A stretch of DNA of 64,000 bases from assembly GCA_019454835.1 (NCBI GenBank), contig JACFNP010000008.1, positions 3,778 to 67,777 of the forward strand, read 5' to 3'. Positions 250-59,721 of this stretch are shown here, piece after piece. The DNA is from Rubellimicrobium sp. Its GTDB lineage: Bacteria; Pseudomonadota; Alphaproteobacteria; Rhodobacterales; Rhodobacteraceae. The notes under the pieces were generated by a model. It was not told the DNA's origin. It made no database searches and saw only the letters and a list, made by a program, of their open reading frames with translations. How positions within the stretch are numbered: position 1 is the stretch's first letter; the number at the start of each line of letters is the position of its first letter. Both the position numbers and the translations under genes were made by a program.

Positions 250-327
250 GTCATTGCGAGGGGAAGCCGAAGCATGCCCGATGTTGTGCGCGAGCGGTCG
301 AGGTTGCTTCACTTCGTTCGCAATGAC
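250..327 (-). repeat. nested-palindrome element copy 1 (A loop, R orientation, degenerate)
   Basis: GTCATTGCGAGG...TTCGCAATGAC, 78 bp; loop reads CGATGTTGTGCGCGAGCGGTCG. Confidence 0.8.
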
Positions 328-337
328 GAGAACTGCC

Positions 338-423
338 GTCATTGCGAGGAGCCGCAGGCGACGAAGCAACCTCGATGTTGTGTGAGAGCGGTCGGGGTTG
401 CTTCGGCTTCGCCTCGCAATGAC
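338..423 (-). repeat. element copy 2 (A loop, R)
   Basis: GTCATTGCGAGGAGCCGCAGGCGACGAAGCAACC...GCTTCGGCTTCGCCTCGCAATGAC, 86 bp. Confidence 0.9.
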
Positions 424-465
424 GGGATATGCGGGCGCCAAATGCGCCACCAGCCCGCAAGACGC

Positions 466-1212
466 TCAGCCGAAGATCGCGTGTTCCAGCGTCAGGTCGG
501 GGTCGAAACGGCCCTTGCCCAGAAACAGCAGCACCTGGGCGATGACCAGCGGGTTGTTCATCATGAAGGTATGCGTCACCGGCAGCGTGATGTGATCGGT
601 CTCGCCCGCCATATGGGTCGATTCCACCGACACCTTGCCGTCGTTCGGCCCCTCGATCAGCGCCGAGGTCAGCGGGTTCACCGTGGCGCTGCCCGCGATG
701 ATGCCGATCTCGCAGGGCGCCAGCGGTGTCTCGGGCAGGGCCTGCGGGGTGTCGTCCTCGCCGGTGCCCAGCGCCAGCCCGGCGGGGCCGTTGATCCAGC
801 GGAACGGCGCGAAGTCACCGAAGATGTCGACCAGTTCCGACCCCTTGTTGGGCGGCGCGAGCATCACCACCCGGCCCATGTTCGCAGGCCGCGCCCGCGT
901 CAGCCAGGCCCGCACGAGGATGCCGCCCATCGAATGGGTGACGAAATGCACCCGCCGCGCGCCACATTCGGCGACCATTTGCGGGAGCCAGTCGCTTACC
1001 AGTTCGGGGATCGAATGTTCGGTCGAGGGATAGCCGGAATTGACGCAGAAATAGCCCGCGCGTTCGAGCACCAGTTGCAAGGGCAGCAGCGAGGTCGCCG
1101 AGCGCGCCAGCCCGTGAATGAGCACCACCGCCTCGTCGGCGGCGCCATCTTCGGGTTTGCGCGCGCGCAGCAGTTGCAGCAGGCCGGGATGCGACAGCGG
1201 GTCCATGGCCAT
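466..1212 (-). CDS. alpha/beta-fold hydrolase (lipase/esterase-like)
   Basis: 248-aa ORF with nucleophile elbow HSMGG and an N-terminal VVLIHGL oxyanion-type motif. Confidence 0.7.
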
Positions 1213-1258
1213 ACAATAGCGGCATATCGGCGCGCGAACAGGGGGGGTGTTGCGCGCT

Positions 1259-2815
1259 TTACCCCGCCGCGATCCGGGCCAGTGCCTGCGGCACGAGGTC
1301 GGGCAGGTCGCTGGCGATCAGGCCGGGGCCGAAGGCGCGGGCGGCCTCGACATGCACGAAGGCCGCCAGCGCGGCGGCCTCCGGCGGCGCCACCCCGCGC
1401 GCCAGCAGCCCGGCGATCAGCCCCGCCAGCACGTCGCCCGCCCCCGCCGTGGCCAGCCAGGGCGCCGCGCGATCATAGGCGGCGGCGTGCAGACGCACCC
1501 GGCCCTGCGGCTCGGCGATCACGCTCGCGCGGCCCTTCAGCAGCACGCTCACCCCCAGACGCCGCGCCAGCGCCCGCGCCGCATCGGCCCGCGAGGGCAG
1601 CGGCGCGCGTTCGCCGGGGCGGCTTGCGGCGACCAGATCGGGGGCGAGGCGGGCGAATTCGCCCTCATGCGGGGTCAGCACGCAGGCCGGATGCAGCAGC
1701 GCGCGCAATCCGGGCTGCCGCGCCAGCAGCGTCAGCGCATCGGCGTCCAGCACCACCGGACGCCGCGCGCGCAGCGCCGCCGCGACCAGCCCGGCCTCGC
1801 GCGGGCCGGTGCCCAGTCCGGGGCCGATGCACAGAGCGGTGATCCTCGGGTCGGCCTCCAGCCACGCCGCCAGCGCCGCGCCGTCCTCCAGCCCGCGCAG
1901 CATCACCGCCTCGAGCGCCGGGGCGAGCGTGGCAAGGTCGCCGGGCGCCGCACCCAGCGTCACCAGCCCCGCGCCGATGCGCAGCGCCGCGCGCGCCGCC
2001 AGCCGCGCCGCCCCCGATCCCTGGGCCGGACCCGAGACGACCAGCACCGCGCCATGGCTGAACTTGTGCCCCTGCCCCTTGTCCAGCGCCGCCGCCCCGG
2101 CGCTGCCCGGCGCGACCGCGACCCGCCGCATCGCATCCTCGGGGGCGCCCGTCAGGCCGATGTCGGCGACATGCAGCCGCCCGCAGACATCCGGGCCGTG
2201 GCCGAGATACTGGCCGGGCCGGGCGCGGTGGAAGGTCACGGTCAGGTCGGCGCGCAGCGCGGTGTCTGGCAAGGCCGCGCGCGGGCAGCCGGGATAGAAG
2301 CCCGAATCGAGGCACAGGCCCGAGGGCGCATCGACCGCGACCACCTTTCCCGCCGCGTCCCGGCGGCGCGCCAGCAGCGCGAAGGCCCCCGCCGGATCGC
2401 CGGTCATCTCGCGCACCGCCCCGGCACCGAACACCGCGTCCACCACCAGATCGACCGGCAGCGCCGCCGCGACCGCTTCGGCGTCCAGCGGGCCGGTGTC
2501 GCCGATGGCCGCCCAGCGCCGACGCATCAGGGTGGCATCGGCGCCCTGCCGGGCCGGGTCGCCATGGGCCAGCAGCCGCACCCGCCAGCCCGCCTGCACC
2601 AGAAGCCGCGCGATCACATGGCCGTCGCCGCCGTTGTTGCCCGGCCCACACAGCACCAGCGCCGATCCGGGGCGCAGTCCGGGCCAGGCTTCGGCCAGCG
2701 CGCCGACCACGGCGGCACCGGCGCGCTCCATCAGACCGGCGCCGCCTGCGGCCCCCGAGGCGATGGCGGCGTCCTCGCAGGCCCGCATCTGCGCCATGGT
2801 GAGCAGTTCGTCCAT
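1259..2815 (-). CDS. nnr: bifunctional NAD(P)H-hydrate repair enzyme (epimerase/ADP-dependent dehydratase)
   Basis: 518-aa ORF. N-terminal YjeF-N motif [13 protein letters not shown] and C-terminal kinase-like GAGDVLAG. Confidence 0.85.
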
Positions 2816-2907
2816 GAAGCCCCCGCTTGCGCCTGTGGCCGCTTGCCCCTATGCCGGGGACCGGCAACGGTGCGGCTGCGCGCACCCATCCCCGGAGGGC
2901 GGACACC

Positions 2908-3246
2908 ATGAAAAAGGTCGAGGCCATCATCAAGCCGTTCAGGCTGGACGACGTCAAGGAAGCCCTGCAGGAAATCGGCGTGCAGGGCCTGTCGGTCACC
3001 GAGGTAAAGGGCTTCGGCCGCCAGAAGGGCCATACCGAGCTTTACCGTGGCGCCGAATATGTCGTCGATTTCCTGCCCAAGGTGAAGGTCGAGATCGTCG
3101 TGCCCGACGACCGGGTCGAGGCCGCGATCACCGCGATCACCGAAGCCGCGCGCACCGGCAAGATCGGCGACGGCAAGATCTTCGTCCTGCCGGTCGAGGA
3201 GGCGATCCGCGTGCGCACCGGCGAACGCGGCGACGAGGCGCTCTGA
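2908..3246 (+). CDS. glnB: nitrogen regulatory protein P-II
   Basis: 112 aa, [20 protein letters not shown]..., with T-loop YRGAEY. ATG at 2908 is inside the longer track ORF 2827..3246. Confidence 0.95.
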
Positions 3247-3247
3247 G

Positions 3248-3425
3248 AGGGCAATCGGGCGAACGGCTCTGCGCGGGTTGGCAGGGCGTCCCTGCTCGCG
3301 AAATCCGTGATTGCGAGAAGCCGAAGGCGACGAAGCAACCTCGATGTTGTGCGCGAGCGGTCGAGGTTGCTTCGGCTTCGCCTCGCAATGACGAAAATAC
3401 GCCGTGCGCCCGATTGCCGTGGGCA
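3248..3425 (-). mobile_element. full-length MITE-like form around copy 3, inserted at the glnB stop codon
   Basis: Outer inverted arms GGCAATCGGGCGAACGGC (3250-3267) and GCCGTGCGCCCGATTGCC (3401-3418) match 17/18. A 10-bp direct repeat CTCTGAGAGG lies at 3241-3250 and 3426-3435; the right one is offset by 7 nt. Confidence 0.55.
3307..3392 (-). repeat. element copy 3 (A loop, R)
   Basis: GTGATTGCGAG...CCTCGCAATGAC, 60 nt downstream of the glnB stop. Confidence 0.9.
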
Positions 3426-58449: not shown

Positions 58450-58465
58450 CCCGCACACAAACCCC

Positions 58466-58552
58466 GTCACCCGCGAGGCGAAGCCGAAGCAACCCCGACC
58501 GCTCATACACGACATCGGGGTTGCTTCGTCGGCTTCGCCTCCTCGCAATGAC
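58466..58552 (+). repeat. element copy 20 (A loop, F; left terminus variant GTCACCCGCGAGG)
   Basis: Read directly from the sequence. Confidence 0.9.
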
Positions 58553-58585
58553 GGAAGATGCCGCCGCGCCGCCCCCTTTTCCGCC

Positions 58586-58669
58586 GTCATTGCGAACGCA
58601 GTGAAGCAACCCCGACCGCTCGCTCAACACCCTCGGGTTGCTTCGTCGGCTGCGCCGCCTCGCAATGAC
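58586..58669 (+). repeat. element copy 21 (A-like loop, F)
   Basis: GTCATTGCGAACGCAGTGAAGCAACCCCGACCGCTCGCTCAACACCCTCGGG... Confidence 0.9.
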
Positions 58670-58785
58670 GGGATATGCCGCCCGCCCGATCACCCCGCCC
58701 CGCCACCGTGCCCCTTGAAACCGGCGCCGCGCTCGTCGACAGTTGTGCCAGCCTGCCGCCGCATCACCACAACGGACGGACCATC

Positions 58786-59523
58786 ATGCCGATCTACAAG
58801 GTCAGACCGCACGCCGAATCCTACGGCCACGACATCGGCATCCTGCTGATCGACTGCCGGACACCCTTCATCCCCGGCGATGTCGGCAACGCCACCTCCT
58901 ACCGCTATCCGGTCCTTTACCGGACGGTTCCCGACGTGACGCTCGACCGGCTCATCAACCGGGGCGACCTGTCGCTGACCGGGAACGTGCTGGCCACGGC
59001 GCGCGGACTGGAGGCCGTCGGGGTCCGCGCCATCACCAGCGACTGTGGCTACATGCTGCATTTCCAGAAGCAGGTCGCGGCGGCGGTGTCGATTCCGGTC
59101 ATGCTCTCGCCGCTGCTGCAACTGCCCTTCGTCGAATCCCTGCTGGGCGATGATGCGGCCATCGGGATCATCTGCGCCAACCGGCAGCGCCTGACGCCGG
59201 ACCTGCTGGCCATCGCGCTGCCGAACCCGCGCCTGCCGGTCCATGTCGCCGGGCTGGAAACCTGCCCGAACTTTCGCGGGCCGATCCTCGACGAAACCGA
59301 CACGCTCGACAGCGACGCCATCGAGGCCGAGGTCGTCGCCGCCGCAAGCCAACTGTGCGACGCCCACCCCGCCATCGGCGCCATCGTCATGGAATGCTCG
59401 AACCTGCCGCCCTACGCCCATGCGGTGCAGGCCGCGACCGGCAGGCCGGTGTTCGACTTCCTGACCATGATCGACCACGTCCGCGCCGCGACACGGCGCA
59501 GGCGCTATGCGGGGCATTACTGA
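58786..59523 (+). CDS. Asp/Glu/hydantoin-racemase-like family protein
   Basis: 245 aa from MPIYKVRPH. Two Cys-containing half-site motifs (ITSDCGYM, VMECSNLPPY) resemble this fold. Confidence 0.5.
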   Translation: MPIYKVRPHAESYGHDIGILLIDCRTPFIPGDVGNATSYRYPVLYRTVPDVTLDRLINRGDLSLTGNVLATARGLEAVGVRAITSDCGYMLHFQKQVAAAVSIPVMLSPLLQLPFVESLLGDDAAIGIICANRQRLTPDLLAIALPNPRLPVHVAGLETCPNFRGPILDETDTLDSDAIEAEVVAAASQLCDAHPAIGAIVMECSNLPPYAHAVQAATGRPVFDFLTMIDHVRAATRRRRYAGHY

Positions 59524-59537
59524 AGCCCGCAAATTCC

Positions 59538-59623
59538 GTCATTGCGAGGCGCAAGCCGAAGCAACCCCGACCACTCACATACAACATCGGGGTTGCTTCG
59601 TCGGCTTCGCCTCCTCGCAATGA
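59538..59623 (+). repeat. element copy 22 (A loop, F)
   Basis: Full termini. Confidence 0.9.
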
Positions 59624-59634
59624 CGGCAGTTCCC

Positions 59635-59721
59635 GTCATTGCGAGGCGGAGCCGAAGCAACCTCGACCGCTCGCGCAAAGCCTTCGGGGTTGCCGCGTCG
59701 GCTTCGGCTCCTCGCAATGAC
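59635..59721 (+). repeat. element copy 23 (A-like loop, F, B-type right arm)
   Basis: Full termini. Confidence 0.9.

Follow-up and report, generated by a model that had tools for sequence, protein, structure and literature searches.

A divergent, dimeric type of CGTC-tagged palindromic repeat at high density in Rubellimicrobium and its probable relation to Ssn-family GIY-YIG nucleases

Proteins of ~94 amino acids assigned to cd10448 have been described as the Ssn family of site-specific single-stranded DNA (ssDNA) endonucleases (PMC11893778). The SsnA protein of N. meningitidis binds the hairpin of the NTS repeat (CGTCATTCCCGCGMAVGCGGGAATCYRG) in ssDNA and cuts a few nucleotides upstream of it, and is inactive on double-stranded DNA, on RNA and on the reverse strand; binding depends most on the C that directly follows the palindrome, and cutting on the three bases before the palindrome (GTC) (PMC11893778). 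In addition, NTS-flanked DNA transforms less well when SsnA is present, Ssn trims incoming or exposed ssDNA and modulates recombination, a degenerate repeat motif called SRM lies near 71% of the ssn homologs, and the NTS-ssnA-NTS layout was noted, as a hypothesis only, to resemble an insertion sequence (IS) (PMC11893778). An earlier work of 2013, which the Ssn paper (PMC11893778) does not cite, had defined the CGTC-tagged repetitive extragenic palindromes (REPs). According to that work, these carry a CGTC/TGTC tag, open the stem with A-T at positions 1–2, end in a short CCA tail, come mostly from Alphaproteobacteria, and mostly form dimers with the tags outside (HH) and with conserved spacers, with occasional intragenic copies; no transposase association was reported for them, and no RAYT flanked by CGTC repeats was found (PMC3733652). 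Here we have analysed a 64-kb stretch of Rubellimicrobium sp. (contig JACFNP010000008.1, positions 3,778 to 67,777; hereafter the window), in which a nested palindrome of ~86 bp recurs 23 times, and we compare this element, referred to as the ATTGCGAG type, with these systems.

Our reading, to which we give a probability of roughly 0.7, is that the elements are a divergent dimeric type of the CGTC-tagged REP/NTS/SRM repeats, i.e., the cognate ssDNA recognition sites of Ssn-family GIY-YIG nucleases. Judged from sequence, the repeat type extends a recently explained system and is not of an unknown kind; what appears to be new is a type missed by the SRM motif, with an Ssn clade of its own. The association between GIY-YIG genes and repeats is itself not new, having been published in 2025 (PMC11893778). 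We have established the anatomy of the element, its family-level link to one Ssn clade, the gain or loss of a module in a sister type, the absence of target-site duplication and the lineage-specific abundance.

Anatomy of the element and comparison with described repeats

The window holds 23 complete copies of 78–90 bp at 14 loci, i.e., about one per 2.8 kb. The terminal 12-mer GTCATTGCGAGG (with no more than one mismatch) occurs 41 times on the two strands, against 0.62 expected from shuffles. Pairing of left and right termini gives 21 units, and two further full units carry the variant terminus GTCACCCGCGAG (7075–7164 and 58466–58552). A covariance model of the 23 copies, run with filters off, recovers exactly the same 23 at 69–112 bits; the next-best match in the window reaches 17 bits, and the true copies score 22–58 bits on the opposite strand. 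Since the short and long arms differ, each copy has a defined orientation. The copies and the accompanying features are as follows, with covariance-model scores in bits for the copies and nhmmer E-values for the outer modules.

250..327, minus strand: copy 1, 78 bp, degenerate right arm, A loop, doublet with copy 2 (69 bits)
338..423, minus: copy 2, A loop (109 bits)
3307..3392, minus: copy 3, A loop, 60 nt past the stop of the P-II gene (105 bits)
3394..3421, minus: outer inverted-repeat module (E 1.7e-4)
5650..5737, plus: copy 4, A loop, divergent gene starts on either side (101 bits)
6945..6974, plus: outer inverted-repeat module abutting the tag, partner at 7165–7186 (E 2.5e-4)
6975..7060, minus: copy 5, A loop, doublet with copy 6 (110 bits)
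7075..7164, minus: copy 6, B loop, variant terminus GTCACCCGCGAG (75 bits)
12037..12123, minus: copy 7, A loop, between convergent DUF1801 and MFS genes (110 bits)
25746..25831, minus: copy 8, A loop, convergent ABC ATPase genes on either side (105 bits)
31112..31197, plus: copy 9, A loop, inverted doublet with copy 10 (100 bits)
31215..31304, minus: copy 10, B loop (81 bits)
31577..31723, plus: N-terminal half of a parE-like toxin open reading frame (ORF), running into copy 11 with its stop in the right terminus
31725..31810, plus: copy 11, A loop, truncating parE (112 bits)
34778..34810, plus: left-terminal fragment GTCATGGCGAGGCGCAAGCC...
34811..34897, plus: copy 12, A loop, in a triplet between the methylmalonyl-CoA mutase stop and the aminopeptidase P start (109 bits)
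34908..34995, plus: copy 13, B loop (76 bits)
35009..35095, plus: copy 14, A loop, 98.9% identical to copy 12 (111 bits)
40941..41026, plus: copy 15, A loop, outer inverted repeat on both sides (40913–40940 and 41027–41056) (111 bits)
49281..49364, plus: copy 16, first of a direct triplet, read through by the PIG-L ORF (103 bits)
49376..49462, plus: copy 17 (106 bits)
49474..49559, plus: copy 18 (103 bits)
55701..55787, plus: copy 19, between divergent uvrD and ppdK, with its own 17-bp outer inverted repeat GGGGTGAGCGGGTTC (88 bits)
58466..58552, plus: copy 20, variant terminus GTCACCCGCGAG, 16 nt past the ppdK stop (99 bits)
58586..58669, plus: copy 21 (85 bits)
58670..58697, minus: outer inverted-repeat module, best copy (E 3.6e-5)
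59538..59624, plus: copy 22, doublet with copy 23, spacer as between copies 1 and 2 (107 bits)
59635..59721, plus: copy 23 (98 bits)
59722..59749, minus: outer inverted-repeat module (E 4.8e-4)

The arms have the form GTCATTGCGAGG...GAAGCAACCCCGA and enclose one of two centres, the A loop in 20 copies or the B loop, a GC hairpin, in three (7075, 31215 and 34908); in the alignment, arm variants are seen to reassort with either loop. The mean pairwise identity is 84%, and copies at distant loci reach 95–97% (e.g., 12037 vs 59538). Overall, these results bear out the first-pass annotation, a reading of the letters and their ORFs, in its count of 23 recognisable copies, in its two central loops and recombining arm variants, and in its description of a genuine, very abundant REP/MITE-like nested palindrome. 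It had listed at least two terminal fragments, and one was found here (34778–34810). Its extent of ~86 bp is incomplete, as a further outer inverted repeat of ~28 bp (consensus ~GGGGTGATCGGGCGCGCGGCATATCC) brackets many copies or doublets; in a profile search with nhmmer, all matches with E<0.1 lie within 1–12 nt of element ends.

At a finer level, each copy lacks an ORF and joins two half-sites, C-GTC-ATTGC...GCAA(Y)-C, into an inverted dimer whose CGTC tags point outward in 23/23 copies. Read 5' to 3', the half-site consists of C, GTC, ATTGC, then GAG, a mini-hairpin with a GNA loop and GAA, and finally GCAA(Y) and C; that is, a stem of 5 bp (ATTGC/GCAAY) surrounds 12–20 nt, and a free spacer (A or B loop) links the two halves. 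The short arm is always GAG-GGCGAAGCC-GAA, while the long arm has ~3 extra bases on each side of the mini-palindrome, and this asymmetry is conserved family-wide. Among the 46 half-sites, the complete CGTC is found in 42 and AT at stem positions 1–2 in 44 (A and T singly in 44–45). The base before the terminus is C in 45/46 and the base preceding it is a pyrimidine in 46/46; the true element end is YC-GTCATTGCGAG. Because in about half of the copies the mini-palindromes of the two arms are not complementary to each other (GGC..GCC vs GCC..GGC), the two halves behave as separate modules.

All 23 copies fold as one long imperfect hairpin, as RNA or as DNA, with RNA energies of −32 to −57 kcal/mol, so the folding proposed as a check in the first-pass annotation gives a single long hairpin. 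An obligatory four-way junction (cloverleaf), at first suggested by the mini-hairpins of the arms, has been dropped as a general model, since the single long hairpin is found in 23/23 window copies and 72% of metagenomic ones, 28% being branched. In the helix beside the centre, wobble pairs number 31 A·C vs 13 G·T in the short-arm-first frame, which is suggestive of a functional strand and is too weak to use.

The likeness to SRM/NTS repeats is considerable. Both functional determinants are kept in the window half-sites, namely GTC in 43/46 and the C after GCAAY, i.e., after the palindrome, in 46/46, and the two kinds share AT-started palindrome arms, a mostly intergenic position, the repeat-ssn-repeat layout, a single-domain GIY-YIG protein of ~95 aa and hosts in several phyla; NTS/SRM repeats run to hundreds of copies. 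On the other hand, the stem of the ATTGCGAG type is only 5 bp and is interrupted by GAG...GAA and a GNA-loop mini-hairpin of 2–3 bp, the element is an inverted dimer with a second conserved helix (GAAGCAAYC/GRTTGCTTC, in the window and most family members seen), and its nucleases form a separate clade, the Ssn biochemistry coming from other members only. As the stem is short and interrupted, the published SRM motif finds no repeats of the ATTGCGAG type. Run as a regular expression, HGTCWYN(0-2)YYVSBRHN(0-5)WNVSBRGN(0-2)RNCYNB gave 0 matches beside the ssn genes of the ATTGCGAG clade (L120, L194, L209 and L213), while it does detect repeats in L205, L206, L207 and L225 (Azospirillum, Neisseria, Sinorhizobium and Shinella).

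With the CGTC REPs of the 2013 report, the element shares the tag outside the stem, A-T at stem positions 1–2, HH dimers with conserved spacers, an alphaproteobacterial bias, occasional intragenic copies, the lack of a transposase link and possibly a short C-rich tail (PMC3733652). The tail at the untagged end is GCAATC-CAG or -TC family-wide and GCAAC-CCCGA, pairing with the other half, in the window, against a consensus of CCA given there (PMC3733652). CGTC families 1–4 are described in it with uninterrupted stems of 8–9 bp and loops of 4–5 nt, which does not hold for the ATTGCGAG half-site; CGTC-1 is ATTCCCGC and CGTC-3 is ATTGCCGGG, as back-translated from the intragenic examples in its Additional file 3 (PMC3733652). 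The Bradyrhizobium CGTC-1 repeats with "loops of different length" may be of the ATTGCGAG type (PMC3733652). The first-pass annotation named no described family and had taken a match to a catalogued one as the outcome that would count against it; as to kind such a match exists, because tag and dimer layout fit the CGTC-tagged REPs (PMC3733652) and the repeat goes with an Ssn clade (PMC11893778), while the SRM consensus has 0 matches.

The Neisseria dRS3/NIME arrays are also alike in being tandem arrays of units of ~50–150 bp bounded by tagged palindromes, dRS3 being the CGTC-1/NTS core; they differ from the window element in the palindrome and in having variable RS units between hairpins, where the window has a compact 86-bp unit with a second helix. 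Rfam 15, one of the databases proposed for checking, gave 0 window matches at the gathering threshold and only chance miRNA-like matches of E > 0.005 in 30900–35300. Literal searches of literature text with element sequences returned nothing beyond primer noise.

Two side observations concern the element ends. The variant terminus GTCACCCGCGAG replaces GTCATTGCGAG at 7153–7164 and 58466–58477, both times on the short-arm side, and also at 484–496 of L203, in the ppdK-upstream copy of a relative; its recurrence suggests a repeat sub-lineage. The 10-nt doublet spacer GGCAGTTC(T/C)C is common to 328–337 and 59625–59634, which are 59 kb apart, and the outer flanks are similar; the whole doublet of ~240 bp appears to have been copied as a unit.

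Nuclease genes that accompany the repeat type

The first case of an associated gene was a 102-aa GIY-YIG ORF between two copies (L120), and more were collected by tblastn. These genes encode proteins of ~95 aa that match Pfam PF01541 with E 1e-13 to 1e-17. In 10/10 of the loci where a close GIY-YIG gene was found next to the repeat type, the gene lies inside the dimer, is bracketed by copies, or has copies or half-copies alongside:

L194 and L229 (Ca. Tisiphia): gene inside the dimer, between the GAAGCAATC and GATTGCTTC halves
L120, L213, L226 (Methylocystis iwaonis, 3+3 copies), L227 (Pedobacter fastidiosus) and L343 (viral contig): complete copies bracket the gene
L141 and L228 (Sulfurimonas): half-units surround the gene, and in L228 half-units stand alone by dozens
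L209: left half before the gene, right terminus and a full copy after it

In the 10 kb of Pedobacter (L227), the only two copies are the pair that flanks the GIY-YIG gene. A neighbour-joining tree, which took in the proteins of nine of these ten loci, puts the nine ATTGCGAG-associated nucleases in one clade, with six nucleases of other CGTC stems outside; the clade carries the signature K-G-G-x-R-x-x-K in place of K-K-W-x-R-x-W-K. By number of loci, the enrichment of ssn in repeat-bearing over control metagenome loci is not significant (3 vs 2 loci), and adjacency is the informative test. Multiple insertions of identical Ssn proteins were considered and rejected, since many contigs represent one locus in different samples.

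Sister types show the same layout. The ssn gene lies between inverted REPs of the host type in Azospirillum lipoferum, Neisseria gonorrhoeae, Sinorhizobium meliloti, Novosphingobium aromaticivorans and Shinella (plasmids and chromids), and the control locus L043 has just two REPs in 21.7 kb, one on either side of ssn. In A. lipoferum 4B, a module of ~520 bp (REP dimer-ssn-REP dimer) sits just after sufB, in the sufB-sufC spacer; it is absent from A. ramasamyi, whose flanks are 98% identical, and from B510. Shinella has an independent ssn-in-dimer in the same spacer. As a side observation, this spacer (L205, L225 and further matches), which holds ssn in A. lipoferum 4B and Shinella, holds a DUF559 gene (Vsr-like endonuclease) in Sphingomonas parapaucimobilis and a gene with a heavy-metal-binding domain in Paracoccus; small selfish cassettes appear to insert there preferentially.

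The nature of the associated gene bears on two rival explanations. In REPIN-RAYT systems (Bertels & Rainey; Nunvar), inverted REP dimers reportedly form long hairpins, with typically one gene per genome flanked by repeats. The window elements could accordingly belong to the REPIN type and owe their mobility to a RAYT (an IS200/IS605-like Y1 transposase) with its gene elsewhere in the genome. Such an origin would suit the inverted dimers of short palindromes with their long hairpins, the many ORF-less copies per genome, the missing target-site duplications and an orientation biased along the chromosome. The REPIN tag is GTAG and the enzyme an HUH Y1 transposase, whereas the present repeats have CGTC, with neither GTAG nor GTGG, the embedded or bracketed gene is a GIY-YIG nuclease in 10/10 family loci, the window has no Y1 transposase, and no RAYT flanked by CGTC repeats was found in the 2013 work (PMC3733652). 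We consider a RAYT origin very improbable, and the RAYT link raised in the first-pass annotation is unlikely because the GTAG tag is missing.

The second rival takes the elements as classical miniature inverted-repeat transposable elements (MITEs), i.e., internally deleted ISs on whose 11–12 bp terminal inverted repeats a DDE transposase acts in trans. Like Correia/NEMIS and RUP, the element is small and intergenically abundant, with perfect terminal inverted repeats and one disrupted gene (parE). MITEs descend from DDE-transposase insertion sequences and are flanked by target-site duplications, and the present element differs in both respects. No flanking direct repeats of 2–9 bp rise above control at the four boundary offsets tried in 129 metagenomic and 23 window copies, there is no transposase in the window, those relatives of the element that bear an ORF encode a 95-aa nuclease and no transposase, and monomer half-units stand alone in Sulfurimonas. 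A MITE is thus scarcely credible here.

On the reading as Ssn sites, the following steps can be proposed. The cognate Ssn would be encoded elsewhere in the Rubellimicrobium genome and, by analogy with other members, would bind the hairpin in ssDNA and cut next to each tag; each element would present a single site for cleavage on each strand, and the cut would fall within the conserved outer flank. Copies may spread and reshuffle through nuclease-provoked repair or recombination, or through a hairpin-based single-strand process, and this spread would be analogous to that of REPIN/RAYT and not to cut-and-paste DDE transposition.

Several points weigh against this reading. The long hairpin formed by the whole element would bury the half-sites in a duplex, which Ssn leaves uncut. 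The isolated half-site DNA hairpin is no better than shuffles under nearest-neighbour parameters (z ~−0.6, vs −3.4 for the Neisseria NTS); the half-site core, GCGAAGC/GGCGAAGCC, is what we take to be the classic GNA-loop DNA mini-hairpin, which such parameters may under-score. The SRM motif has 0 matches in the window, where ~1.1 are expected by chance, and no ssn homolog was found in the window or in the relatives' loci (120 queries, all matches with E ≥ 0.04). Cleavage of the ATTGCGAG type by Ssn would follow from published work on other members, and the multiplication of such repeats is a proposed mechanism only, Neisseria included.

If the Ssn reading holds, its interest is practical as well. 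Ssn proteins are the first site-specific ssDNA-only endonucleases described and are under development as tools; each enzyme/repeat pair is a potential new specificity. The window is a high-density example of a repeat type that the published motif leaves undetected, and the type, with a separate Ssn clade represented in Alphaproteobacteria, Bacteroidota, Campylobacterota and Rickettsiales, adds to the known Ssn/repeat pairs. The type may account for some of the ssn genes, ~29% in all, near which no recognisable SRM was reported. It also provides a candidate enzyme for the CGTC REPs, left without a dedicated transposase in 2013, a link not made explicit in PMC11893778.

Distribution, abundance and possible mobility

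A metagenome scan with the pattern GTCATTGCGAG-N54-84-CTCGCAATGAC returned at least 120 stretches, with 141 copies in the 120 listed, and a scan of viral contigs at least 120 stretches. Copies with exact termini and the same four conserved blocks are found in metagenome and viral contigs of 35–72% GC, and the internal blocks GAAGCAATC and GATTGCTTCG, which the pattern does not demand, are kept in 141/141 metagenome copies (contigs of 35–70% GC). Across the family, a Y adjoins the left end in 120/127 copies and an R the right end in 121/127, a pattern that fits the description "CGTC or TGTC". The helix beside the centre extends by 2–3 bp with covarying pairs, and beyond it the centre is free, at 5–52 nt.

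Some individual contigs deserve mention. L112, a metagenome contig of 41% GC, has eight tandem copies with a 121-bp period at 3969–5019; the family can also expand as a satellite-like array. In three unrelated contigs of low to mid GC (L181, L195 and L196), the element is nested in a larger palindrome, ...GATGGTCTCGTAAAAAGTC, ~10 nt, element, ~10 nt, GACTTTTTACGAG.CATCA..., which echoes the outer module of the window and the nested CGTC-1 dimers described in Halothiobacillus (PMC3733652). Unannotated full-length copies, 75–79% identical to the A type of the window, occur on plasmids of Novosphingobium resinovorum and N. aromaticivorans and on a plasmid of Methylosinus trichosporium OB3b. The Sulfurimonas metagenome-assembled genome L228 has its dozens of monomer half-units at 400–7400, with 33 left vs 7 right termini in 10 kb; they stand, together with short tandem runs of CCCGTCATTGCGTCCCCT, among toxin-antitoxin genes of PIN, HEPN and nucleotidyltransferase type.

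Close relatives have far fewer copies. The relative with 92% PpdK identity has a degenerate copy with a different centre at the orthologous site upstream of ppdK (L203, 417–497, vs 55701–55787 in the window) and one other partial copy in 13 kb. The centre is a B-like GC hairpin there and the A loop here; at this fixed site, one spacer module has replaced the other. At 84% PpdK identity, 17 kb of a relative contain 0 copies, and the terminus has 0 occurrences in 1.43 Mb (80 loci of other Alphaproteobacteria) among the aminopeptidase P matches listed, the best of which is 66% identical.

These data bear on whether the repeats are still in use. They could be fossils of a lineage that lost the nuclease, now functionless and only maintained or homogenised through recombination or gene conversion. 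The reassorted modules and the heterodimeric arms are in line with this, as are the orthologous ppdK-upstream copy, kept but diverged in the relative, the degenerate copy at 250–327, and the report that 19% of the genomes with >200 SRMs are without an Ssn homolog (PMC11893778). Against it, the termini are near-perfect (each key position is kept in 42–46 of the 46 half-sites), identities of 95–99% are seen between copies from distant loci, and the density is far above that in relatives; together these features argue for recent activity or selection. A fossil state is accordingly rather unlikely in our estimate.

Mobility-type signals are the truncation of parE, the 95–97% identity of distant copies and a copy number far above that of relatives. 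One may go beyond recognition sites and suppose that the ATTGCGAG elements are mobile but non-autonomous and that their own Ssn clade copies them in trans; repeat-ssn-repeat would then be a GIY-YIG counterpart of RAYT/REPIN and a distinct, so far unclassified kind of prokaryotic mobile element, which would have crossed at least four phyla and phage-like contigs and undergone a recent burst in the Rubellimicrobium lineage. We hold this tentatively, at less than even odds. To the published IS-like hypothesis, the present analysis adds the presence or absence of the sufB-sufC module, the occupation of the same spacer in Shinella, the disruption of parE, the lack of target-site duplication and the co-clustering of enzyme and repeat.

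Genomic setting in the window

The window has a GC content of 66–75% (average ~70%). Gene calling by third-position GC gave 48 genes, each of which was compared with Pfam. The set is of an ordinary chromosomal kind (purK, P-II, methylmalonyl-CoA mutase, propionyl-CoA carboxylase, enolase, uvrD, ppdK and ABC transporters), and none of the 48 encodes a transposase, a Y1/HUH protein or a GIY-YIG nuclease; no tRNA gene is found in the window either. Five of the 14 loci are convergent, six are tandem and three lie between divergent gene starts, and the copies are almost entirely intergenic. In these respects, copies outside coding regions and no mobilising gene nearby, the first-pass annotation was right, as it was for the two copies that touch genes. 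The copy at 31725 cuts the parE-like ORF after ~48 codons, and residues 8–47 of the truncated product align to residues 21–60 of the 108-residue ParE 6x0a (phmmer vs PDB, E 1.5e-4). As no C-terminal half of parE follows downstream of this copy, the insertion was accompanied by a deletion. The PIG-L ORF continues through the copy at 49281, which supplies its end.

Positions near gene ends invite another explanation, that the element is an RNA-level device, a transcription terminator or 3'-end stabiliser, selected at gene ends; it is compatible with recognition by Ssn. Eleven of the 14 loci are downstream of at least one gene, several copies begin 14–60 nt past a stop codon, the RNA hairpins are very stable at the energies given above, and the arms hold GNRA- and UUCG-like mini-loops. 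The terminator-like placement proposed at first sight holds for the five convergent loci and fails for the six tandem and three divergent ones. Moreover, no TTTT or AAAA occurs within 15 nt of any of the 23 copies on either side, and the orientation relative to the upstream gene is mixed at tandem loci (same sense in 7 copies at 3 loci, opposite in 6 copies at 3 loci). It is these missing T- and A-runs, the mixed orientation and the three loci with divergent promoters that make the terminator reading weak. There is no Rfam family match, and the near-invariance of the stem sequence across hosts of 35–72% GC points to protein recognition of the sequence and not just of the shape. Overall, selection as an RNA device seems unlikely to us, with somewhat more in its favour than a fossil state.

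The remaining observations concern the neighbourhood of the copies. The interval 31408–31810 is a remnant of a parD/parE-type toxin-antitoxin pair, whose upstream 56-aa ORF has no Pfam match. The orientation of the elements switches along the window: 7/8 copies in 250–25831 are on the minus strand and 14/15 in 31112–59721 on the plus strand, or by locus, with the mixed doublet left out, minus in 5/6 vs 0/7, the switch lying near 26–31 kb. GC skew in the window has no switch that matches, and the change could come from replication direction, inversion or chance. For annotation, the elements explain short-read assembly breaks, spurious ORFs and extended gene ends in the source organism. Among short-read (Logan) contigs of 2–5 kb from the source organism and a close relative, two (L001 and L082) terminate at repeats and a third (L231) ends shortly before one. 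Finally, 60390–63997 on the minus strand encodes an SbcC-like ATPase of 878 aa (matches to SMC_N, AAA_27 and SbcC_Walker_B) followed by an SbcD-like metallophosphoesterase. SbcC and SbcD form a nuclease pair that cleaves DNA hairpins, and here such a pair is encoded in a genome packed with long palindromes.

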